Origin: an uncultured bacterium
Lineage (GTDB): Bacteria; Zixibacteria; MSB-5A5; CAIYYT01
NCBI GenBank assembly: GCA_963726455.1
Contig: CAVSCK010000004.1
Coordinates: 896,001 to 960,000 of the forward strand
Direction of reading: 5' to 3'
DNA length: 64,000 nt
Shown: in pieces, positions 6,675-48,717 of the stretch
Layout: each line of letters begins with the position of its first letter
Numbering within the stretch: the first letter of the stretch is position 1
The notes under the pieces: model-generated
The model's input: only the letters and a program-made list of their open reading frames with translations
What the model was told of the DNA's origin: nothing
Databases searched by the model: none
Translations under genes and position numbers: made by a program

Positions 6675-6696
6675 AACTTATTCCTCAACGGTTAAC

Positions 6697-7071: not shown

Positions 7072-7083
7072 TTCTATGCTCCA

Positions 7084-7623
7084 TTACGCCGCGGTCTTGC
7101 CGGCTTTCTTGCGAACGACCTCGCCTTTATAACGAATGCCTTTGCCCTTGTATGGCTCCGGCGGACGGAATGACCTGATCTTGGCAGCCATCATTCCCAC
7201 GATTTCCTTGTCAATGCCCACCACACGCAAATGCGTCTGGTCGTCCAGGACAATCTGAATGCCCGGAGTCTGCCGCACCAATATCGAGTGCGAATAACCC
7301 ACGAGCAGCTTCAGATGCTTGCCGGCGATCAGTTCCGCGCGATAGCCCACGCCCTGAATTTCGAGCGCCTTCTCAAAGCCATCACTGACGCCCTTTACCA
7401 TGTTGAAAATCAACTGGCGCGTCAGTCCATGCAGCGACTTATGAAAACGGCTGTCGCCCGGACGCGTAACGGTGAGCGTCTTGTTATCAAGATTCAGAGT
7501 CATCGACGGATGGAACGTCTTCGCCAGAGTCCCCTTGGGGCCGGTGACTGTAACGTCGTGTCCCTTGATGTCAATCTTGACCTTGTCCGGGATCACTACG
7601 GGCGCTTTACCTATTCTCGACAT
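7084..7623 (-). CDS. rplF: 50S ribosomal protein L6
   Basis: MSRIGKAP...RPPEPYKGKGIRY. Confidence 0.98.
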   Translation of the reverse strand: MSRIGKAPVVIPDKVKIDIKGHDVTVTGPKGTLAKTFHPSMTLNLDNKTLTVTRPGDSRFHKSLHGLTRQLIFNMVKGVSDGFEKALEIQGVGYRAELIAGKHLKLLVGYSHSILVRQTPGIQIVLDDQTHLRVVGIDKEIVGMMAAKIRSFRPPEPYKGKGIRYKGEVVRKKAGKTAA

Positions 7624-7640
7624 ATTCTACCTCGACCGCC

Positions 7641-8039
7641 TTACCAAACGTAGCAGAGTGCTTCGCCGCCGACACCTTCCTGTCGGGCTTCCTCGTCGGT
7701 CATCAGGCCGCGCGAGGTGGTAAGGACTGTCATACCCATTTGATATTTCATCTTCTGCAACTTGTCTTTGTCCGCATACTGTCTCAAACCGGGACGCGAT
7801 ACGCGACGCAGGCCGCGCATGACCGGTTCGTCATGTTTGGTGTAACGCAGGTAAACCCGCAGAATACCCTGCTTGTCGTCCTTTACTTCCACGGTCTTCT
7901 TGATGAAATGATGTTCTTCAAGAATGCGCGCCAATTCCCGTTTAATATTCGAGGCCGGCACGTCGACTTTCTTCATCTTGGCTTTGTAGCCATTTCTTAT
8001 GCGAGTCAGCATATCCGCAACTGGATCAGTCATCGTCAT
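7641..8039 (-). CDS. rpsH: 30S ribosomal protein S8
   Basis: [13 protein letters not shown]...SRPGLRQY...GGEALCYVW. Confidence 0.98.
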
Positions 8040-8054
8040 ATTGTTCCCAACCTC

Positions 8055-8240
8055 CTACCAGCTCGCCTTGGTTACGCCAGGCAGATCACCCGCCAGAGCC
8101 ATTTCGCGGAAGCAGATACGGCACAGACCAAAGCGACGCATGTAAGCCCGCGGTCTGCCGCAGCGACGGCAGCGATTGTAGCCGCGGACGTGAAACTTCG
8201 GTTTGCGCCTCTGTTTTTCGATCAAACAGGTCTTTGCCAA
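8055..8240 (-). CDS. rpsN: 30S ribosomal protein S14 (short zinc-binding type Z)
   Basis: [24 protein letters not shown]; 61 aa. Confidence 0.97.
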
Positions 8241-8251
8241 ACGAATCTCCT

Positions 8252-8794
8252 TTAATTCTTTCTGAACGGCAGCTTCATCAGAGTCAGCAAATTAAGCGCT
8301 TCCTCATCCGTCTTCGCTGTTGTCACTATGGTTATATTCATACCCCGGACTTTGTCGATTTTATCATAATCGATTTCCGGGAAGATAATCTGTTCCTTCA
8401 GGCCGATGGTATAGTTGCCGCGGCCGTCAAACGACTTCGGCGAAATGCCGCGGAAGTCACGGACGCGCGGGAAAGCCAGATTCGACAGGCGATCCAAAAA
8501 TTCGTACATCCGTTCGCCGCGCAATGTCACGGCACAGCCGACCGGCATACCCTGGCGGAGCTTGAAATTCGAGATCGACTTCGTCGCCCGGCGCACGTAT
8601 GCCTTTTGTCCCGCGATCGTGGTGATATCACCCATCGCGGCATCCATGGCTTTGGCGTTGCTGATCGCTTCACCGAGACCGACGTTGATAACGATCTTCT
8701 CGATCTTCGGCACCTGCATGACGTTCTTGTAACCGCCTTCTTTGATCAGGCGCGGAATAACTTCCTGACGATAAAAATCCTTAAGTCGTGCCAT
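8252..8794 (-). CDS. rplE: 50S ribosomal protein L5
   Basis: [16 protein letters not shown]...EQIIFPEI. Confidence 0.98.
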
Positions 8795-33543: not shown

Positions 33544-34470
33544 CTATTTCAACTCTTCCGGCTTCTTCGCCAGATTGTTGACGACGTAGTCATATACTAT
33601 GAAAGTCTCATCACCGGCAGGCGATTGGATATAGTAAGTCTTGTTGTCCGTACCCTGTCCGGCAAAACGTAATGACTTCGCGCTGCCGTCCATCATGCTC
33701 ACATCAACCTCAACCGTCGGTTGCGCAAAATTCGGCCGCACTGTATCACCTTCTGCAACCGAGTTGTTCCACCGGACCACCGCCAACTGCCGCAGCATGT
33801 TTGACATCTTTCCGGGATTTGGTTTGAACGGATCACCCTTGGCTGGAATGATGCTCCACAGCGAATCCTGTCTGCCGATGCGATAGTCGAAATCCTTGCT
33901 CTTGAAAGCAATGGTCGCGATCTGGGCAGTGTCAATAGTCAGCAGCGTCTTGTCGCGGTAACCTGATGCCGGTCGATTGAGCAACCGCGCAAAACTACCC
34001 AGCGCTTCGTACACGTCCGGCGAATCCGGTTTGCGAACATAGGTCTTCTGGTAGTCGGCGCCCATCTTGCCGATGATCACCGACGCCAGCGGAGTTTGGT
34101 CGCGATAATACGTCACAGTGTTCCCCGAAATCGTGTCAACCTGAAACAGCATTTGCTTATCAGGATTCGAGCTGATCACCTCACCGACCGACATCGTGTG
34201 CGCCAGACTTGCCAGTTGTTGTACCGTGCCCGGCTCCGTCGAGAATGACTTTCCGCGATCCAGAACGTTCCACGCCTCGCCAACTTTCTCGAATTCCACC
34301 GAACTGCCCATCCGGTGCACCGAAATCTTGTTCACCATTCCCGAATCGACACCGAGAAAATTATTCTGTGCATTTTCCGAGAGCGCTTTCTTCTGGCTTT
34401 GTGACATCAACAGGTATAGCAGAACCAGCACCGCCAGAATGATAAGCGGGATCAATCGTGATCGATTCAT
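33544..34470 (-). CDS. DUF4340-like membrane-anchored protein
   Basis: N-terminal TM helix; two repeats with 'IGK...TYVRK...VY'; typical last gene of GldAFG-like ABC operons. Confidence 0.7.
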   Translation of the reverse strand: MNRSRLIPLIILAVLVLLYLLMSQSQKKALSENAQNNFLGVDSGMVNKISVHRMGSSVEFEKVGEAWNVLDRGKSFSTEPGTVQQLASLAHTMSVGEVISSNPDKQMLFQVDTISGNTVTYYRDQTPLASVIIGKMGADYQKTYVRKPDSPDVYEALGSFARLLNRPASGYRDKTLLTIDTAQIATIAFKSKDFDYRIGRQDSLWSIIPAKGDPFKPNPGKMSNMLRQLAVVRWNNSVAEGDTVRPNFAQPTVEVDVSMMDGSAKSLRFAGQGTDNKTYYIQSPAGDETFIVYDYVVNNLAKKPEELK

Positions 34471-36053
34471 ATCAACTGTCTCCTGCGATTTTGCTTGCGA
34501 ATCTGCCAGCGTGCGACACCGAACAATACCACCAGGAGGGGCATCAGGATGATGTTCATGAACTTCACGACGCCTCGCGTCGAGTCTTCGACAACTTTCA
34601 GCGGGCGGACACTGACGTCCTTCGATCTGATGGAAATCAGTCCCTCATCCTCAGAGAGCCAGTCGGTCATGTTCTGGAACATGATCAGATTCGATTGATC
34701 GCGCAGTACCTGATCCGAGACGAAATCTGCGTCACCCCAAACCACCACTCTCCCCTTGTCGCCCTGGTCCAGACGCGTGTCGAGTCCGGCGGTTCCCTGC
34801 GTAATGACCGTGTCCGGTTGCGGTTTCGGCTTGCCAGCAAAGAAGCTCTTGAAATTGCCGGTAATCGCGACTCCGAGCGGCAATCCCTGCTGATTGAAAT
34901 CGATCTTCGTCCATTGCCGGAACGGATCGATATTATAAGGAGGCACTTGGATTCCCGACTGCTTCGACGTACGCGCCAGAACTTCATAGTTCAGGCCGCT
35001 CGAACCGAAATGCGTCGTATCAATCGATGACGCATAAATCATATTCATCGACTGCAGGTCCTTGACGATCAGATTCTTCTTCGAGAAATCGGTGATCTTC
35101 GGGAAGAACGGATACTCGCGCAAACTCTGGAATCGGAATTGCCCCTGCTGCTGCTGGATTGCGATCTGCGAATTCTGAACATCGATCAGCATATTGTTGT
35201 TAACACCGACGCCGAGATTCGCAAGAAACGGATCCATTTGCGGATCGGCCGGAATCGCAGTGCCCTGCTGCACCTGCGCGTTGACCTTGTCGATCAGCAG
35301 CCCCAGTTTGCCGCCGCGCATCAGGAATTGGTCGAGCAGGTACAATTCATATTCGGAGAGCTTGGTCTTCGGACCGACGAGATACACCGTCTGGATGTCC
35401 GTCGGAATCTCATATAGCGTCCGCAGTTCCAGCGGCTCAACCTGGTACTCTTGCGACAAGACCTTGTTGATGTAGGTCAGATCCTTGTCGAGCGTCAACT
35501 CCCCGTCGCCGGTAACAAAACCGACCTTGGGAATCGAATGATGAACCAGCTTCTTGATGGCGCGCGTAATTTCGTATTCGAGGGTGGCGGTGTTTTGAAC
35601 AACGGGGATAACTTCCTTCTTATCCGCGAATAACACCGCCAGGCCCATATACACGTTCTTGATTTCCATCTTGTCGTGTGCCAGAGTCTGAATCGGCACC
35701 GCCGGTATACCATACCCGCGCGCCTCCTGCTCCTTGTTCTCTTTGACTGGATCGATGAACACGAAGTTCAGGTTCTTGCCGCCGTACGCCTCGTATTCAC
35801 CCAACTGATCCTTGAGGTAGCGCGCATTGGCGTTGTACGGCTGCGGTATGTCATCCGAGAAATAACACTTGATCGTTACGCGGTCATCCAGACTGCGCAT
35901 CAAATCCTTGGAGGATTGACTGAGCGAATAAATCTTTCCGGAGGTCATGTCGAGGCGACCGAACACATTTACGGAAAGCAGATTGAGAACCAGCAGGATC
36001 ACCAGGATGACAACTATCGAACTGATTCCGCCGATCGTGAGTTTCTTCTTCAT
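34467..36053 (-). CDS. GldG-like ABC transporter auxiliary component
   Basis: RLDMTSGKIYSLS, LEYEITRAI, GFVTGDGE, DQFLMRGG, LISIRSK, C-terminal TM helix. Confidence 0.85.
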   Translation of the reverse strand: MKKKLTIGGISSIVVILVILLVLNLLSVNVFGRLDMTSGKIYSLSQSSKDLMRSLDDRVTIKCYFSDDIPQPYNANARYLKDQLGEYEAYGGKNLNFVFIDPVKENKEQEARGYGIPAVPIQTLAHDKMEIKNVYMGLAVLFADKKEVIPVVQNTATLEYEITRAIKKLVHHSIPKVGFVTGDGELTLDKDLTYINKVLSQEYQVEPLELRTLYEIPTDIQTVYLVGPKTKLSEYELYLLDQFLMRGGKLGLLIDKVNAQVQQGTAIPADPQMDPFLANLGVGVNNNMLIDVQNSQIAIQQQQGQFRFQSLREYPFFPKITDFSKKNLIVKDLQSMNMIYASSIDTTHFGSSGLNYEVLARTSKQSGIQVPPYNIDPFRQWTKIDFNQQGLPLGVAITGNFKSFFAGKPKPQPDTVITQGTAGLDTRLDQGDKGRVVVWGDADFVSDQVLRDQSNLIMFQNMTDWLSEDEGLISIRSKDVSVRPLKVVEDSTRGVVKFMNIILMPLLVVLFGVARWQIRKQNRRRQLI

Positions 36054-36058
36054 CTCGC

Positions 36059-36769
36059 TTACCTCCACTTCCGTGATTCGGTCATCTTGATGGCCAGGTA
36101 CAAAAAGAAAAAGATCATCGAGAAGTAGTAGATCAGATCACGCGAATCAATCACCCCGCGCGAGATGTTGCTATAATGATAATCGATCGACAGATACTCG
36201 AAGAACGAAGCCAGCGTATCGGGCAGGAACGGCAGTATCTTATCGAGCATGAAGAATGCGAATATGATCACGAACCCCACGATGAATGCGATGATCTGAT
36301 TCGCCGACAAGCTCGACGTAAATAATCCGATCGACACATAAACGGCGCCCATCAATATCAAACCGAGGTAGCCGCCAAACGCCGCGCCGAAATCGGCGTT
36401 GCCCAGCGATGCAATCGTGAGATAGGCGACGAATGTCAGAATCACCGATATCGCCGTCAGCGCAAAGCCCGCGAGGAATTTTCCCACCACAATTTCACTG
36501 TCTTTCACTGGCAGTGTCACCAGTATCTCGATCGTACCGGCGCGTCTCTCTTCTGCCAGCAGGCGCATCGTGATTGCCGGAGCAAAAAGCATTAAAATAA
36601 AGGAAGAGATTCCGAACAAGCTCCGCAGATCAGCCGTGTTATTCACGAACAAAGTGCTGGCGAAGAAATAACCCGACACCAGCAGGAATAGTGTGATTAC
36701 GATATAGGCAACCGGCGAGTTGAAATAGGAGCGAATTTCGCGACGGAAGATCGTTAGCACGTTATTCAT
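36059..36769 (-). CDS. GldF-like ABC-2 permease
   Basis: REIRSYFNSPVAY, PAITMRLLAEERRAGTIE.L.T.P. Confidence 0.88.
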   Translation of the reverse strand: MNNVLTIFRREIRSYFNSPVAYIVITLFLLVSGYFFASTLFVNNTADLRSLFGISSFILMLFAPAITMRLLAEERRAGTIEILVTLPVKDSEIVVGKFLAGFALTAISVILTFVAYLTIASLGNADFGAAFGGYLGLILMGAVYVSIGLFTSSLSANQIIAFIVGFVIIFAFFMLDKILPFLPDTLASFFEYLSIDYHYSNISRGVIDSRDLIYYFSMIFFFLYLAIKMTESRKWR

Positions 36770-37700
36770 CGTGTCCTCCCTTGGTCAATTCGCGGAAGAC
36801 ATCTTCGAGACTCGACACTTCCTGTTTCATCTCCAGGAGCACCCAGCGATTTTCCACCACCTTATGGAAGATCGCCTCGCGCGGATCAACACCCTGGCGA
36901 CAGATCAACTCACATTTCGTGGTACCATGGTTCGGGTAGGCCTTGAGTTCCTCAACGCCGTCAATCGACATCAGCGCCCCGCGAATTGTGTCGGGATTCT
37001 GGTTGATCTCGATATTGACCACTGTCTTGCCGGTCAACGAATGCTGCAATGTTTCGGGAGTGCCGTTGGCCACGATCTTGCCGCGGTCAATAATCATCAC
37101 CTGATCGCAGGTGGCCTCAACTTCCGGCAGTATATGCGTGCAGAGGATAACCGTCTTCTGCCGCCCAAGCGTCTTGATCAAGTTTCTGATCTCGACTATC
37201 TGGTTTGGATCAAGGCCGACTGTCGGTTCATCCAGCACCAGAATTTCCGGGTTGTGAATCATCGCCTGCGCCAGGCCGACGCGTTGCCGGTAACCTTTGG
37301 ACAGTTCGCCGATACTTCTTGCGATGACATCTTCCAAACCGCACATTTCCACGACCTGTTTGATGCGCCGCCGGCGTTCCGATTTCAGGCCCCCGCGCAA
37401 CGACAGGATGTATTCGAGGTACTCGATCACGTCCATGTCGGGATAGAGAGGCGCCGACTCGGGCAGATAACCGATTTTCTTGCGCACTTCCATCGACTGC
37501 TCGACGACATCCAAACCGTCGATTGTCACCGCGCCCGAGGTCGGCGGCATGTAACAAGTGATGATGCGCACGCTAGTCGTCTTGCCCGCGCCATTCGGTC
37601 CCAGAAATCCCAATACCTGGCCGGTGGGAACTGAGAACGAGATGTCGTCGACAGCGACCGTTTCGCCGTACTTCTTGGTGAGATTTGTGACTTCAATCAC
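36762..37700 (-). CDS. GldA-like ABC ATP-binding protein
   Basis: Walker A GPNGAGKTT, LSKGYRQRVGLAQA, LDEPTVGLDPNQI. Confidence 0.92.
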   Translation of the reverse strand: MIEVTNLTKKYGETVAVDDISFSVPTGQVLGFLGPNGAGKTTSVRIITCYMPPTSGAVTIDGLDVVEQSMEVRKKIGYLPESAPLYPDMDVIEYLEYILSLRGGLKSERRRRIKQVVEMCGLEDVIARSIGELSKGYRQRVGLAQAMIHNPEILVLDEPTVGLDPNQIVEIRNLIKTLGRQKTVILCTHILPEVEATCDQVMIIDRGKIVANGTPETLQHSLTGKTVVNIEINQNPDTIRGALMSIDGVEELKAYPNHGTTKCELICRQGVDPREAIFHKVVENRWVLLEMKQEVSSLEDVFRELTKGGHDE

Positions 37701-37910: not shown

Positions 37911-39671
37911 TCAGAGTCGCAACTGTTTTTCCGCCAACTCGCGATAGAGGCACGACTTTTCCATGAGTTCCTGATGGCTCCCCTGGTCGATAATCGCCCC
38001 ATCCTTCAGAGTTAAAATTCGGTTGGCGCGTTGGACTGTTGCCAGGCGGTGCGCAATAATAATCGCCGTCTTGTCCACCAGTATCTTGTCCAGCGATTCC
38101 TGAATCAGTTGCTCGGATATCGAGTCGAGCGCGCTGGTCGCCTCGTCCAGAATCAAAATCGGAGGGTCTTTCAGCAGCGCCCGCGCCAGGCAAATACGCT
38201 GTTTTTCGCCGCCCGACAGAGTCACGCCCCGTTCGCCCACCGTACTTTCGTACCCATCCGGCAGTCCAGCGATAAAGTCGTGAATATTGGCGTTCCGGGC
38301 CGCGCGAATGACTTCCTCACGCGCCGCGTCTGGATTCGAGTAAGCGATATTCTCGGCGATCGTCGCCCTGAACAGCAGCGGATCCTGGTCTACCAGCGCA
38401 ATGTTGTCGCGCAGCGACTGCAGTGCAAGCTTGCGCAGGTCGACGTTGTCAATGCTGACGGTGCCCTGCTCGGGATCATAAAAACGCATGATCAGATTGA
38501 TTAACGTCGTCTTGCCGGAACCCGACGGCCCGACGATAGCGATTGTCTCGCCGGCATCAATATGCAAATTGAAGTGGTCGAACTTGAAGGCGCTGTCTGG
38601 GTACGTGAAGGTCACGTCCCGCATGTCGATTTCACCGTGCACCTTCGGAATTACAACCGGCTGCGGATCTTCTTCCACCGACGGCGGCATATCCAGGTAT
38701 TCGAAGACACGATCGACCGAGGCCATGGCCGCAGATATTTCCACTTTCGCAGACCCCAGAGATTGAACCGGACCGTATAGAAATGCCAGGTACATATAGA
38801 AAGCAAACAATTGACCGAGAAGCATTGATTTTCCGGCGACGAGATAGGAACCGAAACAGAGCACGATGATCGGCCCCAGATTCGTGACAATCATTACACC
38901 GTTGTATGCGATGGATCGAATCACACTGTACTTGACATAATATCCGGTCAATCCCGTCATAATCTGGTCGACTTTCTTGCGCTCTTCCTCTTCCTTGCCA
39001 AAGGCCTTGATAACCTTAAGCCCCACCAGCGACTCCTGAATACGCGCTGAAAGTTTCGCCACCGTTTCCTGCAGGCCACGTGCGGTGCGGTGAATCTTTC
39101 CGCCGAACAAGCTTGTCACCAATAGCGTAAGCGGCACGGGAATGATGGCAAACAGCGTCATCTGCCAGTTCAGGTACAGTATGTAGGCGAGCACTCCCAC
39201 CAGGAGGAGGATATTATTGATGATCGACAGCAACGTCGCCGCCAGCAAATCCTGAATGCGGGTCACGTCAGCCATGAACCGAGACATGACCTCACCGGTT
39301 TGCCGCTTCTGGTAAAAGCGCAATGACACGGTCTCCAGGTGCTTGAACAATTTCGAGCGAACGCCCGCGATAATGTTGGCGCCGATGTACCCGGCCAGAT
39401 AATCCCGCAGCCAGGAAAACAGGAATTGCGTCACGTAGATGCTGATCAGTATCAACGCAAAGCCGAGGATCGGCATGATATCAGGCTTCTGCCCTGCAGG
39501 AACTCGCCCGATAGCGGGAATGAGATCGTCGATTAGATATTCAAACGCGCGCGGGATCGCCAACACCAGAATATTGATGACAATCATCACGGCCAGCGTG
39601 ATCAATTCCAATGTCCAGTATGGTTTGAGGAACGGCCAGAGGCGTTTAGCTTTGCCGATATCGAGGATCAT
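37911..39671 (-). CDS. ABC exporter (fused TMD + NBD, no C39 peptidase domain), probable RiPP exporter
   Basis: Multi-TM domain, GPSGSGKTT, LSGGEKQR, ILDEATSALD; overlaps the end of the B12 radical SAM gene. Confidence 0.9.
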   Translation of the reverse strand: MILDIGKAKRLWPFLKPYWTLELITLAVMIVINILVLAIPRAFEYLIDDLIPAIGRVPAGQKPDIMPILGFALILISIYVTQFLFSWLRDYLAGYIGANIIAGVRSKLFKHLETVSLRFYQKRQTGEVMSRFMADVTRIQDLLAATLLSIINNILLLVGVLAYILYLNWQMTLFAIIPVPLTLLVTSLFGGKIHRTARGLQETVAKLSARIQESLVGLKVIKAFGKEEEERKKVDQIMTGLTGYYVKYSVIRSIAYNGVMIVTNLGPIIVLCFGSYLVAGKSMLLGQLFAFYMYLAFLYGPVQSLGSAKVEISAAMASVDRVFEYLDMPPSVEEDPQPVVIPKVHGEIDMRDVTFTYPDSAFKFDHFNLHIDAGETIAIVGPSGSGKTTLINLIMRFYDPEQGTVSIDNVDLRKLALQSLRDNIALVDQDPLLFRATIAENIAYSNPDAAREEVIRAARNANIHDFIAGLPDGYESTVGERGVTLSGGEKQRICLARALLKDPPILILDEATSALDSISEQLIQESLDKILVDKTAIIIAHRLATVQRANRILTLKDGAIIDQGSHQELMEKSCLYRELAEKQLRL

Positions 39672-41076
39672 TCTGCCAGTCCGGAAAATACTTATTGGCG
39701 GCAAATCGGAGCGCGCCTGGGGATAGCGTGTTTCTCATCGCTTGATCCCGCTGGGTCAACATCTCAAACCAAAGATCGGGATCGTTGGCAAGATCGTGCG
39801 ACGGAATATTGCGCCGGCAGTTTGTGTATTGATCTTCCTCCAGTTTCCACCAGTCGGGGCAGAGAATCTTGCTGCCGAATTGTTGCTCGAACCAGGCACT
39901 GTTGTAGTCCATCTCGCAGCCGGGGTAGTGCATATAGCCGAGACCGGCCCACATGAAAGTCGTTTCTTTGCGCTGCAATTCGGCGTCCATGAAGGCAAAT
40001 GTCTCATCAAGCGTTCGATGTGTCTCGCCGGGGTAATTAAAGATCATGTTTGCGCGGTGCAACACTCCGGCATCGGACAGCCGATGGCTGACCGTCTTGA
40101 CAATTTCGAGGTACTTTTCCGGCTGCTTAGTCTTCTTCATATAGCGTAGAATGTCGGGAGATCCGCTTTCAACACCCAATTCGATTTCCACCTTGAGTTT
40201 TGAGAACAGTGCAATATCCTCGGGATCAATATACTCCGGGCGAGTCTCGACAACAATCCAAAACTCCGGCTGCAGGTCGACGAGTCGGCGCAGGAATTCC
40301 TTGCGCCAGGCCGGACGCATCCCGAAACAGGCGTCACTTATTGCCACCGAGTAGAAATTGAATCGTTTGTAGGCGTCCAGAATATGCTTAATGGAATCCT
40401 CGGGACTATAGGCGCGCCATCGCCGATCTTTCAATCCCTCCATGCAGAATGCACAGTTAAACGGGCAGCCGCGCGACAGATACATATAGAAACTCTGCAC
40501 ACCTTCGGGTTTGTGTTCTGCCAGATGCTGTTCGAGCAGGTCGAGATTGAGCGGTACGAAGTGTTCGACGCCAAACATCGGCGCGTGCACAATCTTCGTT
40601 TCACTAGGACGGCCGTCGCGTTTGAGGTTGCCGGCAATTTCGCGGAGAATCAATTCGCCTTCGCCGCAAATCACGTAATCGAACAGCCGTTCTTCAGTCA
40701 GGAATTCATTGGGACGTGCCGAGGGATGATAGCCGCCGACTACAATCAGCTTATTGGGATACATTTCCCGGAAGATACGGGCGGTCTTCATGGTCGCCAG
40801 ATAAGATAAGCTGGTCCAGCAGGAAATGGCGAGAATGTCGCAGTCTTGTTTGGCGAAGAAGTCGCGGACTTTGCGTTCGTAGCGCTTGATCAAAGTCGGA
40901 CTGTTGGGCCGGCCGATCGAGTGCTCGAAATCGGCATAAGTAACAGGAAAGTATTGAGCCAGGTATGACGACAGCGTCAACTGTGACGCGCGAACATCGG
41001 GCTTGGCGATCCAATCAGGGTAATAGAAGCAGGATGGGTAAAGCACCAAAACCGACGGTGAAGTTGCAGCGGCCAA
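39646..41076 (-). CDS. Cobalamin-dependent radical SAM enzyme (class B, probable methyltransferase)
   Basis: B12-binding-domain motifs LIVVGGYHPS and DYVICGEGE; SRGCPFNCAFC; ELGVESGS. Confidence 0.88.
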   Translation of the reverse strand: MAAATSPSVLVLYPSCFYYPDWIAKPDVRASQLTLSSYLAQYFPVTYADFEHSIGRPNSPTLIKRYERKVRDFFAKQDCDILAISCWTSLSYLATMKTARIFREMYPNKLIVVGGYHPSARPNEFLTEERLFDYVICGEGELILREIAGNLKRDGRPSETKIVHAPMFGVEHFVPLNLDLLEQHLAEHKPEGVQSFYMYLSRGCPFNCAFCMEGLKDRRWRAYSPEDSIKHILDAYKRFNFYSVAISDACFGMRPAWRKEFLRRLVDLQPEFWIVVETRPEYIDPEDIALFSKLKVEIELGVESGSPDILRYMKKTKQPEKYLEIVKTVSHRLSDAGVLHRANMIFNYPGETHRTLDETFAFMDAELQRKETTFMWAGLGYMHYPGCEMDYNSAWFEQQFGSKILCPDWWKLEEDQYTNCRRNIPSHDLANDPDLWFEMLTQRDQAMRNTLSPGALRFAANKYFPDWQNDPRYRQS

Positions 41077-41081
41077 TCTAA

Positions 41082-42194
41082 CTAATGGCCTTCCGTTTGT
41101 GGCGGTTGGAACCTGGCCAGAAGTTGCGTGACAATCTCACTGTCCGGTGGCGCCGCGATGCCTTGTGCCTGCTCAATGCGGTACGTACAATACGGATTGT
41201 CCGCGCGGCAACCCGAGGCAGACACCGATGTTGTCGTGCAACCACCCCGGCACAGCGGCAGGTACTTGCAGTCGTGGCATGCGCCCGATGCAGTCTCGCG
41301 CGTAAACTTGCGGTTATATGCAAAGGCGTCCGGGTTATTCCAGATCTCCTTCAATGATTTCTCGCGAATGTTGCCTTCGACGAACTCCTCCTGCATGGAC
41401 AAGCATCCCTTGACGTTGCCGTTGGACTCAATCCCCACAACTCGCGTGCCGGCATAGCAACCCATATACACACCACCCTCCCAGAGTTTGGTCCCGAGTT
41501 GTCCGAAGTAGCCGATGTTTTCGCCGACGTCGAGATGCAGGCCGTTCTTACGTTCCTTGATTTCGATCAGCTTACTGATCATTTTCGGATAATCGGCAAG
41601 ACGCAGCACGAGTTCGTTGCTGTCTTTCATACGTCCGGTTGACGTGCAAAGCTGCACCCGCCATTCGGGACAACCGATGTCCACCAGAATATTATAGATG
41701 TCGTCAAGTTCTCCAAGGTTGATGTTAGACACTTGCGTCACGGCACAGAAATTGTGCCCCTTGCGCTTCGACAATTGCTTCAATGCACTCACGGCGCCCT
41801 TGAAACTGTCCTCGCGCTGTCGAATGTAATTGTGCGTCTTCTCGGTACCGTCGAAGCTGACTCCCACATTGGTCATCGGGACACTTGCCATATCGTTGGC
41901 TACCGCTTCTGTCAACAACAACCCGTTCGTTACCAATAGCGGCTTCATCTTACGCTCTTTGATCCGCTTGGCGAAAACCAGCCAATCCTCTCGCATCAGT
42001 GGTTCACCACCGGAGAGAGCGATATTGTCGGTGCCCATCTCTGCGAGTTCATCGATCAATTTTAGCCCCTCGTCGGTGGTCAGTTCGTCCGCTCTTCTCT
42101 TGCCGGCAGCCGTGCCGCAGTGAAGGCAGCGCATGTTGCAGGCGAAAGTTATTTCCCAGACGACTGCGTGGGGATAGAATTTGAACTCGGTCAT
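41082..42194 (-). CDS. Radical SAM/SPASM enzyme, PlpX/PcpX-like (putative tyramine-excising splicease)
   Basis: VVWEITFACNMRCLHCG..AG.RR.DELTT.E; GC.AG...GIE.NG.VKGC.S; C..C....LCRGGC; NPYC.YR. Confidence 0.8.
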   Translation of the reverse strand: MTEFKFYPHAVVWEITFACNMRCLHCGTAAGKRRADELTTDEGLKLIDELAEMGTDNIALSGGEPLMREDWLVFAKRIKERKMKPLLVTNGLLLTEAVANDMASVPMTNVGVSFDGTEKTHNYIRQREDSFKGAVSALKQLSKRKGHNFCAVTQVSNINLGELDDIYNILVDIGCPEWRVQLCTSTGRMKDSNELVLRLADYPKMISKLIEIKERKNGLHLDVGENIGYFGQLGTKLWEGGVYMGCYAGTRVVGIESNGNVKGCLSMQEEFVEGNIREKSLKEIWNNPDAFAYNRKFTRETASGACHDCKYLPLCRGGCTTTSVSASGCRADNPYCTYRIEQAQGIAAPPDSEIVTQLLARFQPPQTEGH

Positions 42195-43541
42195 GTCTTC
42201 TCCTTGGCTTTAGAAGTGGCTTGCTGCTGACGAGATCGCGCAATGATGTCAAGCATGGGTGTGAGATTATGCTTCCAACTCTGGCAGATTTCAGTGCCCT
42301 GCAATCCCCGGTCGACGCGCTGAGCCGGACAGCCACCCATGCAGAGCGGCAAGATGTCGCAACTCCTGCACTCGCTCGTCCTCGAACGGATCGAAACTGA
42401 ATAATCTGGTGAAATTGGGATGCTGAAAATCAATGTAGTTACGAATATTGCCCATCGATCTTTCCGGATCTCCGACATAATTCCAACAGCGGCAGATATT
42501 CCCCTCCGGATCGACGATAAAGCCGTTAATATGCTGGGCCATGCAATATATCGCGCTCGGACTCGGCAATTTCTGGACCGCAAATCCTTCGTCCAGCAAC
42601 TGGCGATAGAAACCGATTTCCACCTCGGAGAATTGCACGGTATCAAAGCATGTGTCAGCTATCGCGGCGCACGTCATTGATGACGGTTCAAGCTGGCCGA
42701 AGTAGACCGCTATTCGCTGCTGCAGTCCGGCCGCCTTAAGTTGCCCCAGCAATTCGGACATGGCCGCGAGGTCAACCGTCTTGTCAACGTTGACGCGGAC
42801 CGATATCATCATCTTGCTCGAAGCATATTTGACATTATCCAAAATCGTCTGGAACGAATCTTTGCCGTTCTTCAACGGCCGCCGCTGATTGTGCAGGCGC
42901 TCGGGACCATCGAGCGTGACCTGGCAAATCGAGACGTGCAGTTCCGCCAGTTTGTCCACCACATCCTTGGTCATTAGATATCCGTTGGTGACAATCGAAG
43001 ACGTGTAGGCGAACTGCTTCTCGCGCCCGAGATCGATCAGACTCTCCGCCAGATCCTCTATGATGTCCATCGCCAGTAGCGGTTCACCACCGTACCAATC
43101 CACATCAACCTTGTCGAGTGACTTTGCCTGCTTGTCGACGAAGCCGATGATGCCTTCCACGATCTCCGGGCTCATCTTGCCCTTCTTGTTGCCTTCGAAG
43201 CAATACGGGCAGGCCATATTGCAGGCCATTGTCGGGGCAATCACCAGTCCCAGCGTCCGTCGGTCGTAGCGCGTGCTTTGATGCAGAAATTTCAGCCATT
43301 GGACTTCATTCTCCGAATCAGGAAGCATGAACTTCCCAAATTCAAGCTGCTTCTGCAGTTCGGTCTCCGCGGCATTGAGTGTCGAAGTATCACCACCATT
43401 AGTGCTGCTGCTCGCCAGCCGCAGATACGTCTGGTAGTTTGCCTCTGTCATGAGAGCTAACGCGCCCGTGCGCGCATTAAACGCGATGTAGTACCCCTGT
43501 TGCCAGGGTCGAAAGAGGTTATAGAGGGAGACTTTACTCAT
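42191..43541 (-). CDS. Radical SAM/SPASM peptide maturase with an apparent frameshift near 42375
   Basis: IAPTMACNMACPYCFE, WYGGEPLL, QVTLDG; the SPASM tail ECRSCDILPLCMGGC lies in the shifted frame (ORF 42191-42646), whose stop overlaps the next ATG. Confidence 0.85.
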
Positions 43542-43834
43542 ACGGCGACACGCTTCTTCATTACATGTGATGCGTTACGAATCGTGACCGACTAATCAGT
43601 AGAACCTCATGCTAGTTCGAAGCGCCGAATTCTGATCGATTGCCTGATAGCCCAGTGAAAGCATCAAATAAATACTCGTTAGAGCGACTTTTGTCAAGTC
43701 GTATTTGAGCTCTGAGCGATGACCGAGTTTCGTTTTGCTCGGATGCATAATACTTTGAACAACAATCTTTGTGCGGCAACCGGCAGGCGTCAGAAGAGGC
43801 GTGTCCACGAGTGAAAGTGATCGTCTTGGCGGGT

Positions 43835-43864
43835 AAGAAAGAGGGAGGGGACTAAGCCCCTCCC
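43835..43864 (-). terminator. Intrinsic terminator after precursor A1
   Basis: GGGAGGGG/CCCCTCCC 8-bp stem followed by TCTTTCTT, 3 nt after the stop codon. Confidence 0.75.
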
Positions 43865-43867
43865 GAT

Positions 43868-43987
43868 TCATGTCCGACTCAGATAGGACTCGGGCTTAAT
43901 TCCGTAGCACGGATATACGACACCCTTGCACTTGAAGAACGTGCAAGCGTCGATGCCCGGGTTTTGTGGATCAATCAAATAGATCAT
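43868..43987 (-). CDS. RiPP precursor peptide A1, 39 aa: MIYLIDPQNPGIDACTFFKCKGVVYPCYGIKPESYLSRT
   Basis: Manual translation; AGGAGG RBS 5 nt upstream; paralog at 44439-44543; Cys residues and XYG motif; upstream of three radical SAM genes. Confidence 0.88.
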   Translation of the reverse strand: MIYLIDPQNPGIDACTFFKCKGVVYPCYGIKPESYLSRT

Positions 43988-44019
43988 TAAAACCTCCTGG
44001 GGTTAAGTGAAGGGTCACT

Positions 44020-44066
44020 GAAGGGCCGAAGCCCTTCCGTATCAATGAAACTACCTTTTGATACGT
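44020..44066 (-). promoter_or_regulatory. Conserved double-hairpin 5' leader element (copy 1)
   Basis: CGTATCA..TGATACG stem followed by GAAGGGC-TTCG-GCCCTTC; homologous to 44582-44623. Confidence 0.55.
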
Positions 44067-44389
44067 CTATAACACTTACGCTCTGCCCGTTTCACGGGCA
44101 GGTACAGGATAGTTCCTCCGAGTGGCAGGCGGGTCAAACACCTGCTTTGGTTCACTAAACGTCTGGGAAGCGCGTCGATTTCATGCCGAAGACGACTCAG
44201 TACCGCTTACAAAGTATGATAAATTAAGGACTTCAACAATTGCTCGCCGCTATGATAGCATCTTTTGAATGTCAAAGTCAAGAGTTTTTGGAATGAAACA
44301 TTACCAAAAGTAACCGGATAATCGTTAAGACACACCAAACTTGCAGTCTGAACATTTGTCCGGCTTGATGGGAACGGCGAACAAGCAGT

Positions 44390-44421
44390 CGCGGCGCGGA
44401 GAACGTATCCTTCGCGCCGCG
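44390..44421 (-). terminator. GC-rich hairpin after precursor A2 (terminator or mRNA stabiliser)
   Basis: CGCGGCGCG/CGCGCCGCG 9-bp stem 17 nt downstream of the stop; weak U-tract. Confidence 0.55.
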
Positions 44422-44438
44422 CAGAACACTTTGGAAAT

Positions 44439-44543
44439 CTAGGCCGGGTCCACTCCGTACATCGGATAGAACCTGGGACTGCACAGTTTCTTGAGCGTGC
44501 AACCGCTGATCGATGTGTCCTGGGGATCGATCAAATAAATCAT
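44439..44543 (-). CDS. RiPP precursor peptide A2, 34 aa: MIYLIDPQDTSISGCTLKKLCSPRFYPMYGVDPA
   Basis: Manual translation; AGGAGG RBS; first 8 residues identical to A1; shared CT..K and YPxYG motifs. Confidence 0.88.
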   Translation of the reverse strand: MIYLIDPQDTSISGCTLKKLCSPRFYPMYGVDPA

Positions 44544-44581
44544 CGGGATTCCTCCTATGATGAATTTGGAGTTTTGCTGAC

Positions 44582-44623
44582 GTGGGCCTGCGGCCCACCC
44601 CGTATCATGAACCTCTGATACGT
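44582..44623 (-). promoter_or_regulatory. Conserved double-hairpin 5' leader element (copy 2)
   Basis: CGTATCA..TGATACG stem followed by GTGGGCC-GCA-GGCCCAC. Confidence 0.55.
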
Positions 44624-44807
44624 TTCTTGCTTATGCGACCTCGTTCGTTTGCCACCTGTCGAAAACTAGGACATCCAGTCTTTCGATGCAATAGCCAATT
44701 CTCGACAATCCATCCTGGCTAGTGAGACGGCCTACTACACCTGCTGAAACAAGCAATGTCCGCTCCGGTGCGAAACTATAGAGGTAACAATTCGATCAGT
44801 TGAAAGA

Positions 44808-44836
44808 ATATTACGATTTGCCCGCCCATTTGTCAA
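44808..44836 (-). promoter_or_regulatory. Sigma70-type promoter upstream of precursor A2
   Basis: TTGACA-N17-TAATAT on the minus strand. Confidence 0.6.
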
Positions 44837-44903: not shown

Positions 44904-47549
44904 CTAAAGCACTGGATGCTCTTGATCTGCCCGTTGGCCCGCATTCCTGAGCAACTCAGTATTGATTGCCTCCGCTAATTCGCGGCGGGAATATGGCTTT
45001 CTGACAAACGCCGTGACTCCCAGAGTCTGCAATTTACTGACTCTGTCGGTCGTCGCATATCCACTGACGAGAATTGCCCTTTGCTGTGGATGTATCTTGA
45101 GGATTGCCTCGTAAGTGTCTAGTCCGTCAAAATCCTTTTCCAGAATCATGTCCAGTAAGACAAGGTCCACCGACCGGCCAGAGAGATAAACAACGGCCTC
45201 GTGGCCGTTAGTAACCAGTTCCACCTCGTAACCAAGACTTCCGAGGATTTGTCTTGCTATCTCCCTCTGTTCCGAGTCATCCTCCACCACCAGAATCTTC
45301 ACCGGTGTTGGCCCCGGCTCATAGTTCTTCTGTTCAGCAGGGCACGATGTCATAATCGGTGCCGATGTCGCCGGGAAGAACAGTAAGAACTCTGCGCCCC
45401 TACCCGGCTCCGAAAGGACGTCATAGTACCCTTTGTGATCCTTCACTATGCCATGAACAACTGCCAGACCCAGTCCGCTGCCGCTGGCGCCCATCGGCTT
45501 GCTTGAATAATAGGGATGAAAGATCTTATACACGTCCTCTGGATTTATCCCGACGCCCGAATCCTTCACGCTCACGACTACATATTCACCCGGTTCGATT
45601 CCGTTGAATCCACTGGGAAGTTGGGTATACTGGCCGGAGTACGTTCTTATCGTCAATTCGCCCCGGTCGCCGATAGCTTCGAATGCATTCACCACCAGAT
45701 TCATGATGGCTTTCATCAGATGCGATGCCGAACCACTGATATTCGGCAAGGTGTCCGGTAGCGCAACATTCACGGAAATGTTAGGGTGATTTTCCCTCAG
45801 CGAGAGGAAATTCGGTGACTCCAGATATTGTCTAAGCACTTCGTTGACATCAGTCGGCTTGGTTTCGTATCGACCCCGTCGCGCCAGCGCCAGCAGATCC
45901 TGAATAACATCAGCGGCGTCTCTCGCCGCCTTCGACATGATTTCCAGTTGGCGCCGATGCGGACTATCCGACGGCAGTTTCATCATTATCAACTCAGGGT
46001 AAGCCACCAGTGGCCCCAGAATATTGTTCAGGTCGTGCGCTACCCCGCCGGCCAGCAACGCCAATGATTCTGCACGCTCCGCTTTCTCCAACCGGCGCTG
46101 CAAGATTTCCTGCTGCTCGGCTTCGTGCAGCCGCAATGTGATATCGCGCGCGACACCGACGATGCCGGCAACCTTCCCGCGCTCGTAGTACGGCTGTTCG
46201 TTGACTTCCAGTACCAGCCGATGCTTCTGCTTGTGGTATATCTCCACCTGATACGGCGGGAATGTGATTCCCTCTTCCATCGCCCGTTCCGTAAAGTCGA
46301 TCACCTTGGCATTGGCAGGACTGTCGGTCAGGTAGCTGGTATAGTGCCGCATCCACTCCTGCGGCGTATATCCGGTCACGGCCTCCACCGAATGCGAGAC
46401 GTAGTGGAAGATTCCCTGAGTATCGTGGCGATATATGAAGTCGCTCGTATTCTCCAGCAGCACCCGTTGCTCGGCAGCCAGTTCTGACACCTTTGTCGCC
46501 GCATCTTTCAATGCTTCTTCCGTGTGCTTGCGCTCGACTATCTCATCTACCAGACTGCTGTTCTGATGGAAGAATTGGTCAATGAGATAGGCAATCAGCC
46601 CGAACTCTCCCCCCTCCATTTTTAGATTCTGAATATACTTTGCGTCGTCTTCCGACAGTGCGCGCGATATAGAAGCAAGCGGCCGCGATACCCAGAATCG
46701 CAGCGTATACCAGCCCACCAGGATCAGCAAACTGCAAAAGACGATAATCACCGCCGTGCGGGTATTAACTGCGCGATTGTATTCAGCCAGGAATCCCGAT
46801 CGACTTTCACTTCTGACGACCGTCACGGGAAAACTATTCCAACCGTACAGCGTATCCGCCGTGCGCACTTGTGCTTCATGCAGGTCAGACATCCATTGCG
46901 TAAGAGGCGAGTTCCCGATCTCCACCAGCGTGATGTTGGCCTCCGACAGCCGTTCCAATTCCCTCACATAATCTGATGACCACAAGCGCCCAACCAGCAA
47001 ATAGCCCACTGGCGGGGTGCTCCGTCCCTCATCCGCACTCGGTTGAATCGGTGCGCCACACATTTCCATGGGTCCGAGCGGCGTCGACACGAAGAAATGA
47101 GGAAACATGCCGTTGGCGAACAGGTGTTCACTGTTAGCGGTGAGAAATGGCTCCATTGCCACAACTTCGCCCGCGACCTTGCACACTGCGTAGACCTGCG
47201 CCATATCGGTTCGGAATACCCAGGCAGCAGTGGCATCATACGTTTCAATGCCCACATCTATGTTTTCGTGCGCCCAGCCGCTATCCGACGTCTTCACGAA
47301 AGTAACCATGTCGTCCCAGAAACTATAGTCGTAGGCAAGTGTCACAAGCGATGTGCCGTTTAGTTCGATGATCTTGTGTAGTAGCTTCTGTTCGCTGGTT
47401 TCCTGGTCAACCAGAATTGATTTTGCGCGGTCTGTTTCAGAATGATGCAGTACGATCATACCGCAAAGCAGTATCCCGACCAGTACGATCAGCAGGAATA
47501 ACAGACGTGTCTGCACTGTGGCCACGATAGTCCCCTGTTGCCTTCGCAT
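44904..47549 (-). CDS. Hybrid sensor histidine kinase (CHASE4-like sensor, PAS, HisKA, HATPase, receiver)
   Basis: Two TM helices around DYSFWDD; H-box AGGVAHDLNNIL; N-box NLVVNAFEA; DSGVGI; GSGLGL; receiver motifs ILVVEDD, LLDM, KPY. Confidence 0.92.
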   Translation of the reverse strand: MRRQQGTIVATVQTRLLFLLIVLVGILLCGMIVLHHSETDRAKSILVDQETSEQKLLHKIIELNGTSLVTLAYDYSFWDDMVTFVKTSDSGWAHENIDVGIETYDATAAWVFRTDMAQVYAVCKVAGEVVAMEPFLTANSEHLFANGMFPHFFVSTPLGPMEMCGAPIQPSADEGRSTPPVGYLLVGRLWSSDYVRELERLSEANITLVEIGNSPLTQWMSDLHEAQVRTADTLYGWNSFPVTVVRSESRSGFLAEYNRAVNTRTAVIIVFCSLLILVGWYTLRFWVSRPLASISRALSEDDAKYIQNLKMEGGEFGLIAYLIDQFFHQNSSLVDEIVERKHTEEALKDAATKVSELAAEQRVLLENTSDFIYRHDTQGIFHYVSHSVEAVTGYTPQEWMRHYTSYLTDSPANAKVIDFTERAMEEGITFPPYQVEIYHKQKHRLVLEVNEQPYYERGKVAGIVGVARDITLRLHEAEQQEILQRRLEKAERAESLALLAGGVAHDLNNILGPLVAYPELIMMKLPSDSPHRRQLEIMSKAARDAADVIQDLLALARRGRYETKPTDVNEVLRQYLESPNFLSLRENHPNISVNVALPDTLPNISGSASHLMKAIMNLVVNAFEAIGDRGELTIRTYSGQYTQLPSGFNGIEPGEYVVVSVKDSGVGINPEDVYKIFHPYYSSKPMGASGSGLGLAVVHGIVKDHKGYYDVLSEPGRGAEFLLFFPATSAPIMTSCPAEQKNYEPGPTPVKILVVEDDSEQREIARQILGSLGYEVELVTNGHEAVVYLSGRSVDLVLLDMILEKDFDGLDTYEAILKIHPQQRAILVSGYATTDRVSKLQTLGVTAFVRKPYSRRELAEAINTELLRNAGQRADQEHPVL

Positions 47550-47723
47550 CTTTCTGCCTCCCCTGTGGATCCGGCATTACCGTTTAGCGGGGAGAATACT
47601 CTGATTTTATCGTCAGAGGCGTGCTTCTCCTGAAGACACCACCGGGCAGCCAAAAACTCGAAAATCTCAGCCATAACACTGCAAATCCTCTCGCTTGCAC
47701 CTGCTTAGGCGACAAAAAAGTAT

Positions 47724-47752
47724 TTGACAATTCCACACAAATTGGGTAATTT
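47724..47752 (+). promoter_or_regulatory. Sigma70-type promoter for the TrmB-family gene
   Basis: TTGACA-N17-TAATTT. Confidence 0.55.
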
Positions 47753-47874
47753 GGGGTGGCTTTTTGTAATCACTGCTAGTGGTTACAATCGCCTCAAGAA
47801 GTCTCGCAGGATATTCGCCTTGAATACTTGCGGCCTGCCTGAACTTCATAGCGTTTAGGAGCCGGAGCCGACTA

Positions 47875-48717
47875 ATGTCCGACAAAGCCATCAAGGGTTA
47901 CCTGATGCAACTGGGCCTGACTGATTACGAGTCCAAGGTCTACCTCTCTCTGCTCAAAAAGAACGCGTTTTCGGCCACCGCGCTCTCGCAGGCCTCCGAA
48001 GTGCCTCGCACTCGCATCTATGAAGTGCTCGAAAACCTCAGTCAGAAAGGTCTCTGCACGGAAATCCTCGGCAGCGTGAAAGAATACCGGGCTGTGAGTC
48101 CCGATCGCGCGATTGAACGGCTGCTGGAAAAACAGAAATCGGATCTGCGGCAGAAAGAGGATTTGGCCGATTCGGTCGCTTCATCGCTCTTGAAATTGCA
48201 TGCTCAGGGTCTTGTCAATCGTGATCCCGCAGACTACGTGGAACTCTACCGCGAGCCCCGGCAGGTTGGTGAGAAATTCGTCCAGCTCCTGTGTGAAGCC
48301 AACCGCGAAATTCTCGTTTGCGTCAAGCCGCCTTTCGTCAACGCAGACCAGGTCTTGCGCCGGCAGAATCAGGAAGAACTCAAATCGATGAAACGCGGGG
48401 TCACATATCAGGCGTTGTACGAAGCCCGCACACTGCAAAACGATGGCACTTGGCAGCCGGCCCATATGAAAAAGACAACGGACGCAGGCGGCAGCGTTCG
48501 CATCATCGAGGAGTTGCCTCTCAAGATGGCGATCTTCGACGAAAGCGAGGTCATCTTCGCCATGGAGGACTTCAATCCTTTCACGAAGACTCAGACTTCG
48601 CTGGTCATCAAGCATCATGCTCTGGCGACAACTCTGAAACTGCTGTTCAACTGCTTGTGGGCCACCGGCGCGGATTATCGCAAGTGGTGGGATCACCAGC
48701 GATCGAATGGGAAATAG
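47875..48717 (+). CDS. TrmB-family transcriptional regulator
   Basis: LGLTDYESKVYLSLL...SEVPRTRIYEVLENL..KG HTH; C-terminal LPLKMAIFD. Confidence 0.9.
   Translation: MSDKAIKGYLMQLGLTDYESKVYLSLLKKNAFSATALSQASEVPRTRIYEVLENLSQKGLCTEILGSVKEYRAVSPDRAIERLLEKQKSDLRQKEDLADSVASSLLKLHAQGLVNRDPADYVELYREPRQVGEKFVQLLCEANREILVCVKPPFVNADQVLRRQNQEELKSMKRGVTYQALYEARTLQNDGTWQPAHMKKTTDAGGSVRIIEELPLKMAIFDESEVIFAMEDFNPFTKTQTSLVIKHHALATTLKLLFNCLWATGADYRKWWDHQRSNGK

Follow-up and report, generated by a model that had tools for sequence, protein, structure and literature searches.

A minus-strand operon in the genome of an uncultured bacterium of the Zixibacteria most likely makes cross-linked, ketoamide-bearing products out of tiny peptides rich in cysteine, judging by comparison of its predicted proteins. 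It lies at 37911-44836 of a 64,000-nt stretch (GenBank assembly GCA_963726455.1, contig CAVSCK010000004.1, positions 896,001 to 960,000), hereafter the window, whose numbering is used for its coordinates throughout. The locus includes two predicted precursor genes (pepA1 and pepA2), two radical S-adenosylmethionine (SAM) enzymes with SPASM domains (rSAM1 and rSAM2), a B12-binding radical SAM enzyme, and an ATP-binding cassette (ABC) exporter. A first-pass annotation made from the letters of the DNA had proposed this gene set, and the list of open reading frames (ORFs) bears it out: two paralogous peptide genes, the enzymes, and the exporter are all there, on the same strand. We hold it to be somewhat more probable than otherwise that this is an operon for a ribosomally made, post-translationally modified peptide (RiPP) that is thioether-stapled, spliceotide-like, and optionally methylated, every chemical step being putative.

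Spliceases excise tyramine at an XYG motif (PMC11414181, PMC11626197, PMC9811515). In the pathway that we propose, the CteB-like rSAM1 would first staple cysteines, through thioethers, to carbon atoms of the backbone or side chains. The splicease-like rSAM2, which has no RiPP recognition element (RRE), would then bind the N-terminal tag of the peptide through its SPASM domain, and tyramine excision at P-x-Y-G would leave a ketoamide. Where present, the B12 radical SAM enzyme may add a C-methyl group, and the ABC transporter would export the product, plausibly a protease inhibitor. In this genome, a frameshift precedes the last SPASM cysteine block of rSAM1; if it is real, thioether formation would be lost here.

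Precursor peptides and spread of the operon

The predicted precursors pepA1 (44439..44543, 34 aa, MIYLIDPQDTSISGCTLKKLCSPRFYPMYGVDPA) and pepA2 (43868..43987, 39 aa, MIYLIDPQNPGIDACTFFKCKGVVYPCYGIKPESYLSRT) were recognized as ORFs, the former matching nothing in Pfam or NCBIfam. Both start with MIYLIDPQ, contain Y-P-x-Y-G, and are preceded by an AGGAGG ribosome-binding site (7 nt upstream at pepA1); in the peptide alignment they are 52% identical. A degenerate MIYLIDP pattern has two matches in the 3.64-Mb genome, both at the cluster, and a control pattern has none. Because the pattern is unique to the locus and such peptides recur upstream of the same enzymes elsewhere, the small ORFs are more than chance.

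The recurrence is seen in 17 loci fetched around orthologues of rSAM2, which occur at 59–72% identity in 16 of the 20 same-family genomes and in a single genome from another family; one further genome contains a contig-end fragment of an orthologue. All 17 loci encode rSAM1 followed by rSAM2. The ABC gene is present in 16, the 17th stopping at a contig end, and the B12 gene in six. Mining for small MIYLIDP...PxYG ORFs near homologues, which the first-pass annotation had suggested, found one or two of them upstream in 17/17 loci, with AGGAGG sites, one ORF being truncated. This conserved pairing of a peptide family with the enzymes downstream agrees with the earlier view that the peptides are the substrates of a RiPP operon.

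In an alignment of 19 peptides, I2, L4, D6, P7, the first Cys, and, in the C-terminal site, P, Y, and G are invariant, so that P-x-Y-G is retained in 19/19. Counted over 18 peptide genes by codon position (1, 2, and 3), variable sites number 1, 1, and 6 in the first 21 nt and 1, 1, and 4 in the P-x-Y-G codons. A profile search of 5.8 billion proteins returned 60 peptide clusters of 29–47 aa, all of them unnamed or 'hypothetical', with one record labelled Zixiibacteriota; P-[LMC]-Y-G-[VIT] is retained in 59/60, and the number of Cys residues is 2–5. The predicted precursors share a plan: an invariant MIYLIDP tag, a hypervariable core with 2–5 Cys, and an invariant P-x-Y-G-[V/I] a few residues before the C-terminus. 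Some loci carry several genes of this type, with five MIYLIDP-family precursor genes in tandem at L053 (locus 5550-7750) and two each at L038, L040, and L052.

At E≤1e-80, rSAM2 orthologues were found in 83/285 genomes of the phylum, 67/198 good-quality genomes, and 39/130 genera. A B12 orthologue is present in 48/285 phylum genomes and lies no more than 600 nt from rSAM2 in 44 of the 83 that bear rSAM2. A scan for MIYL[IV]DP[QM] in 185,579 species, each represented by one genome, gave 59 matching stretches, of which 15 were confirmed, with the labels Zixibacteria, uncultured Ignavibacteria(les), or Calditrichaeota. These observations indicate that the predicted RiPP operon is conserved across a lineage mostly labelled Zixibacteria in public records.

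Eight further loci were added, five of which contain precursors. One, L039 (G111:C3, locus 3668-4867), from another genome of the phylum, encodes a distant rSAM2 paralogue (40% identity) with a degenerate last SPASM block; there is no rSAM1 next to it, and a small precursor is not recognizable there. A divergent sub-clade (L035, L036, L067, and L069; support 100) has rSAM1 40–45% and rSAM2 54–59% identical to those of the window, a B12 gene that, where present, is about 42% identical, and one peptide starting with MEYLIDP. Two apparent irregularities among the orthologues were dismissed: the open frame of 853 aa at G183 does not represent a fusion, as rSAM2 there stops after 367 aa, and an in-frame TAG at G002/G003 is the natural stop of a 368-aa rSAM2 orthologue.

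The two radical SAM/SPASM enzymes

The first-pass annotation had called rSAM1 (42191..43541) a SPASM maturase. NCBIfam and fold comparison uphold a thioether-maturase type, while the gene is not one open frame in the window. Frame A (42291-43541, 416 aa) leaves the family match about 27 residues before its stop; frame B, an ORF at 42191-42646, holds the C-terminal SPASM cysteine block and matches TIGR04334 at profile positions 389-432 as well as the SPASM model TIGR04085. Pfam finds Radical_SAM alone for the window's rSAM1. The junction of the two frames falls between Arg (codon 42372-42374) and Cys (codon 42368-42370), with one extra base near 42371, in the absence of which rSAM1 would have 449 aa. 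Orthologues are intact at 446-454 aa in 16 of the 17 first loci, and the remaining one, at L020, is truncated at 203 aa. That locus (G019:C14, 3510-3572 and 3706 onward) also has a truncated precursor of 20 aa, which suggests cluster decay or errors in an 89%-complete assembly.

The best NCBIfam matches of rSAM1 are families that mature Cys-rich peptides, namely TIGR04334 (Clo7bot; 299 bits in frame A, cut-off 600), TIGR04463 (261, cut-off 525), CefB (208, cut-off 600), and PapB (116, cut-off 340), and its best sequence match in the PDB is CteB. An AlphaFold2 model of a same-genus orthologue, built with a 16-sequence alignment (mean predicted local distance difference test score, pLDDT, 78.3; predicted template-modelling score, pTM, 0.76), has an N-terminal beta-beta-beta-alpha-alpha-alpha domain before the radical SAM core. 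Foldseek places CteB first (5WHY/5WGG; 462-474 columns, template-modelling score 0.66-0.70), followed by TigE, anSME, and SuiB. CteB carries an RRE. The orthologue thus has an architecture of RRE-like, radical SAM, and SPASM parts, the last Cys block of which is out of frame in the window. On the strength of this model, we read rSAM1 as a putative thioether-forming maturase with an RRE.

Either a real lesion or an error of assembly would account for the extra base. If it is real, the cluster would be decaying in this genome and yield no mature product, or an unstapled one only, a prospect that we rate slightly short of even. The base cuts the last SPASM cysteine block off the rest of rSAM1, the site (42360-42385) is not a homopolymer, and the other genes at 34–48 kb are uninterrupted, which suggests that indel errors are not frequent here; L020, with both its peptide and rSAM1 truncated, would be a case of decay within the family. 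Against decay, both precursors, rSAM2, the B12 enzyme, and the ABC gene are intact and the ribosome-binding sites have been kept, and a single-base assembly error could have arisen at the site; a look for sequencing runs over 41000-44600 turned up none, and no RNA record either.

The second SPASM enzyme, rSAM2 (41082..42194, 370 aa; Pfam Radical_SAM and SPASM), begins directly with its CxxxCxxC motif and therefore lacks an RRE. Its best NCBIfam scores are 248 bits on TIGR03913 (cut-off 592) and 242 on TIGR04103 (cut-off 725), the third family reaching 188; with three orthologues included, the ranges are 222-248 bits on these two families and 177-188 on the next, a lead of 55–60 bits. We take TIGR04103 to correspond to IPR026482, the family to which PlpX is assigned in InterPro numbering. 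PlpX, a splicease, belongs to IPR026482 (PMC11002830). The earlier view that this enzyme is of a different family from rSAM1 is supported: its nearest families include spliceases and its relatives are associated with xYG peptides. Its scores lie below the cut-offs. Classification by hidden Markov models, proposed in the first-pass annotation for all three radical SAM enzymes, likewise yielded nearest families, none of them at the cut-off of a named family.

Searched against 1.84 billion representative proteins, the Zixibacterial rSAM2 clade is seen as one sequence (60% identity), followed by hundreds at 33–44%. Among 111 proteins (the window's rSAM2 and the best 110 representatives), 89 match TIGR04103 and 79 match TIGR03913 at E≤1e-60, and one each at E≤1e-100; this scarcity of strong matches indicates that the relatives of rSAM2 form a large clade that has no curated model. 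We surveyed the gene context at 80 metagenome loci, using a query alignment of 30 non-Zixibacterial relatives; 19 loci belong to the Zixibacterial type and the other 61 do not. The conserved small ORFs beside the 61 are precursors with Nif11 or NHLP leaders and xYG cores, precursors ending in xYG and a glycine run occur at seven, and 12 have a small downstream ORF of the size and position of PlpY. These xYG precursors and PlpY-like genes are the signature of spliceases. The relatives' precursors contain 39 YG sites, with P at −2 in 19, M/L/I at −1 in 27, L/V/I at +1 in 28, and P at +2 in 14; their consensus is the Zixibacterial motif, P-[ML]-Y-G-[VIL]-P. Most of the 80 contigs are short, and 'no precursor recognised' at 40 rows of the tree described below says nothing about absence.

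One group of these relatives (L064, L068, L070, L071, L072, L074, and L082; 38–43% identity to rSAM2) forms an enzyme clade with support 99. Directly upstream of each lies a precursor of about 33–87 aa ending in [AV]YG[DT]GGGG, a family that may be the 'GDL motif peptide' of TIGR03913.

For a quick maximum-likelihood tree (113 rows), the root was placed on rSAM2', a paralogue from a second cluster in the same genome that forms one long branch and was flagged as a risky root; because the rows were picked by likeness to rSAM2, the tree cannot exclude intervening SPASM families. The Zixibacterial rows are basal, 41 of them in one part and four in a group with support 100. This four-row group joins, with support 82, a 66-row clade (support 99) that contains every Nif11/NHLP, glycine-run, and YG-repeat system. 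Residues W178, Q181, N226, and Y229 are conserved in all rSAM2 groups of the tree and differ in rSAM2'.

We modelled rSAM2 (30-sequence alignment) with pepA2 (19-sequence alignment), SAM, and three 4Fe-4S clusters. The complex scored 0.77, and the best of three controls 0.02; that mark was attained by 58 of the 80 solved complexes and by 2 of the 110 mismatched pairs, a rough guide here given the use of our own alignments and of riding ligands. The runs share at least 75% of contacts, with a partner pLDDT of at least 58. Residues 1-7 of the modelled peptide contact rSAM2 294-299 and 312-316 in the SPASM domain, and residues 23-36, which include P-C-Y-G, contact barrel strands 56-61, 84-88, 106-111, 146-152, 177-184, and 222-226. 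According to this contact map, both invariant parts of the peptide are the two parts modelled onto rSAM2. The model supports, short of demonstrating, binding of pepA2 by rSAM2.

The second RiPP-like cluster of the genome (L032; G000:C1:30000-45000, locus 5445-8702) contains an intact 453-aa rSAM1-like gene and a 344-aa rSAM2-like gene, rSAM2', interleaved with three small ORFs. Its peptides start with M[RK]FIEQP or similar, have two Cys and a YYPISP or related aromatic-proline end, and contain no YG. The rSAM1 paralogue scores 342 bits on TIGR04334 (cut-off 600); rSAM2' matches AhbD/NirJ/MftC best (184 bits), ahead of TIGR03913 (109) and TIGR04103 (91), and matches like it, at 27–32% identity to rSAM2, are found in many relatives. 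The plan of a CteB-like maturase, a second SPASM enzyme, and a tiny tagged peptide is thus used twice. That the splicease-like enzyme is the one paired with YG peptides supports a division of labour, with rSAM1 acting on cysteines and rSAM2 on the C-terminal motif. The two enzyme types also appear functionally linked because they are fused in P0253 (938 aa), which joins an rSAM2-like domain (4-338) to an rSAM1-like domain (554-934). Two other candidate fusions were rejected: P0182 (731 aa) is a tandem of two rSAM2-like halves, and P0263 did not hold up as a fusion with rSAM1 on inspection.

Several points weigh against a stapled, spliceotide-like product. rSAM2 stays far under the TIGR04103 and TIGR03913 cut-offs and is a member of neither equivalog, and it branches outside, not inside, the clade of recognizable spliceases, in a tree with a long-branch root and rows picked by likeness. 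A PlpY-like gene or Y protein is absent from the operon in the window and in the first relatives. rSAM1 falls short of every family cut-off and is frameshifted in this genome, and BchE and other non-methylases are among the best matches of the B12 enzyme. Two of the eight further loci, L033 and L035, yielded no precursor. The X of XYG is Cys in pepA2 and in three of the 59 peptide clusters that retain the site, and we know of no report of Cys at this position of a splice site. Enzymes in the rSAM2 position differ in chemistry, as rSAM2' serves peptides that have no YG. Overall, because no enzyme reaches the cut-off of a named family, every reaction is inferred.

The group may already figure among the spliceotide 'types' in Scott et al. 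2022, which seems to us rather unlikely. That survey mined YG-rich precursors beside PlpX-like SPASM enzymes from 189 genera, with 27 pairs confirmed (PMC10849128), and hundreds of pathways have been sorted into types (PMC11414181). On the other side, full-text literature searches gave no Zixibacterial radical SAM RiPP or ranthipeptide, the database names of the peptides and enzymes are all generic, and NCBIfam release 20 has no model for either. Our literature search found nothing on this Zixibacterial group, though it did not extend to supplements or to Scott et al. 2022, which may list it.

Another reading keeps the operon and its substrates and assigns to rSAM2 a different Tyr- or Gly-directed reaction at PxYG, such as a cross-link (Tyr to Cys or to Val/Ile), an epimerization, or a C-terminal cleavage; we put its probability lower still. 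The scores below both cut-offs, the branching outside the clade of Nif11/NHLP and Y systems, and the coupling of an rSAM2-like enzyme to YYPISP peptides in the paralogous cluster all favour it. Y-G-[V/I] is also readable as the aromatic-x-x motif of cyclophanes (triceptides), which points the same way. However, the cyclophane-forming families YhhB, AmcB, and GrrM are absent from the best 25 NCBIfam matches of rSAM2, the P-[ML]-Y-G-[VIL]-P context is the same as in the precursors beside its relatives, and its barrel residues are common to those relatives. That this is not a RiPP locus at all, its radical SAM genes serving cofactor metabolism in the manner of NirJ/AhbD and its small ORFs being due to chance, is highly improbable: rSAM2 does match NirJ2, AhbD, and MftC at 160-180 bits, but a haem or cofactor role was rejected on the conservation of the small ORFs, whose sequence, position, and ribosome-binding site are kept in many genomes, on peptide variation that falls mostly at third codon positions, and on a complex model that binds the peptide far above controls.

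Returning to the stapled, spliceotide-like reading, a more specific proposal can be built on it, to which we give odds somewhat below even. The operon would represent a new RiPP subclass with up to three radical SAM enzymes, making very small stapled peptides with an alpha-ketoamide warhead near the C-terminus. rSAM2 would be of the deepest splicease lineage, one that needs neither a long leader nor a Y protein and reads MIYLIDP via its SPASM domain together with PxYG, and the sister cluster with MxFIEQP...YYPISP peptides would be a second chemistry resting on the shared two-enzyme plan.

B12 enzyme, exporter, and surroundings

The B12-binding radical SAM enzyme (39646..41076, 476 aa) has the fused B12-binding domain (PF02310, 45 bits) and radical SAM core (PF04055, 71 bits) of class B enzymes. 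The first-pass annotation had placed such an enzyme in the operon; its domains and its position directly after rSAM2 agree with this, though it is optional, as the 44/83 genomes above indicate. Neither of the two same-genus genomes that carry the cluster has it. Its best NCBIfam match is the hypothetical family TIGR04013 (86 bits, cut-off 251), followed by BchE (80 bits), P-methylases (66-70), PhpK (66, cut-off 600), TIGR03975 (61, cut-off 282), and ApyD (39, cut-off 750), and its best PDB sequence match is TokK (58 bits); it belongs to no family for which methyl transfer has been shown. In RiPP pathways, the reaction most often carried out by class B radical SAM enzymes is C-methylation. By analogy, a putative C-methylation of the peptide is plausible. 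Such enzymes methylate RiPP residues, ApyD making beta-methyltyrosine (PMC11117315). A by-eye comparison of peptides from seven loci with the B12 gene and 11 that lack it gave no visible link between the gene and any peptide feature, because near-identical peptides occur in both.

The ABC exporter (37911..39704, 597 aa) is a fused permease and ATPase of the MsbA type, and its earlier identification is confirmed by Pfam ABC_membrane and ABC_tran. It matches bacteriocin_ABC TIGR01193 at profile positions 160-707 only (344 bits, cut-off 524), and neither Pfam nor NCBIfam finds a C39 peptidase domain in it, the TIGR01193 match starting at position 160. No protease gene is encoded within the operon. 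The tight gene junctions described earlier were all found: an ATGA overlap of rSAM1 and rSAM2 at 42191-42194, a 5-nt gap at 41077-41081, and an overlap of the B12 and ABC genes. The ATGA overlap is made by the second frame of rSAM1 alone.

Upstream of pepA1 is a promoter-like site of sigma-70 type (44808..44836; TTGACA, 17 nt, TAATAT), which matches the consensus at 10/12 positions and is a consensus match only. A GC-rich hairpin directly 3' of pepA1 (44390..44421; RNA fold −23.3 kcal/mol, z −2.34) was not flagged by the terminator scan. pepA2 is likewise preceded by a promoter-like site (44252..44281; TTGACT, 18 nt, TATCAT, with TG; 10/12 in the consensus scan) and is followed by a terminator-like hairpin with a T-rich tail (43843..43864; −17.6 kcal/mol, z −2.34) that the terminator scan did detect. 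All four elements are on the minus strand. Between 43400 and 45000, Rfam gave no match at E≤1, and one 16-nt pair was the sole repeat.

Genes for a set of ABC-2 transporter components and an auxiliary protein (PF09822), for a hybrid kinase (CHASE4-PAS-HisKA-HATPase-receiver), and for a TrmB regulator flank the cluster at 34467-37700 and 44904-48717. The hybrid kinase and the ABC-2 ATPase also border the cluster in one same-genus genome. We see no reason to count the kinase, TrmB, and ABC-2 genes as members of the cluster.

Significance and comparison with known systems

Ketoamide spliceotides inhibit serine and cysteine proteases potently and have antiviral activity (PMC11626197), and spliceases have been used to install beta-amino acids in proteins (PMC11414181). 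If the more specific proposal above is correct, MIYLIDP and PxYG would form a natural minimal 'splice tag'. A splicease for peptides of 30-40 residues that needs a 7-residue tag alone and accepts a hypervariable Cys core would be a compact engineering tool. From an uncultured phylum, the operon would in addition supply scaffolds for stapled inhibitors. The size of the family (83/285 genomes, 60 peptide clusters), which no curated model names, suits comparative work.

Compared with known systems, the Zixibacterial operon would work most like a spliceotide pathway to which a ranthipeptide-type maturase has been added, even though it fails the curated tests of every named family. The spliceotide systems include the type I PlpX/PlpY and PcpXY of cyanobacteria and the binary type II RhaX, RasX, and RcsX, and theirs are the curated families nearest to rSAM2 (TIGR04103/TIGR03913). 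As in these, a precursor with an invariant X-Y-G motif is encoded beside the enzyme, and as in the binary systems, which are described as having no Y protein (PMC11414181), none is encoded here. Cysteines flank the XYG site, as they do in RcsA and RasA (PMC11626197), and XYG was modelled in the barrel, as in the AlphaFold models of spliceases from the Piel group (PMC11414181). In contrast to type I spliceotides, there is no Y protein, PlpY-like ORFs being found only beside the distant relatives. The precursors also differ from those of spliceotides in their length of 29-47 aa and in carrying, instead of a Nif11, NHLP, or other long leader, a 7-residue tag alone. rSAM2, for which tyramine excision is a prediction, lies outside the recognizable-splicease clade and far below the cut-offs, and it has a constant CteB-like maturase partner, often along with a B12 radical SAM enzyme.

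rSAM1 shares its architecture with the maturases of ranthipeptides and sactipeptides (CteB of SCIFF, PapB, Clo7bot TIGR04334, TIGR04463, and CefB), with CteB as its best fold. The families that it matches best mature Cys-rich peptides, and the substrates here have 2-5 Cys. In contrast to those maturases, rSAM1 is below every cut-off and is frameshifted in the window, its precursors are unrelated to those of SCIFF and Clo7bot and match no family, and a second SPASM enzyme is proposed to act on the same peptide. The B12 enzyme resembles class B enzymes of RiPP pathways, such as ApyD and the TIGR03975 C-methyltransferases, and the structure TokK in its N-terminal B12-binding domain and radical SAM core and in being encoded after rSAM2 in a RiPP operon. 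It differs in that the matches to them are weak, BchE and P-methylases matching equally well, and in that its gene is dispensable in about half of the clusters. The exporter, unlike bacteriocin-type cleavage/export ABC transporters, has no N-terminal C39 peptidase domain.

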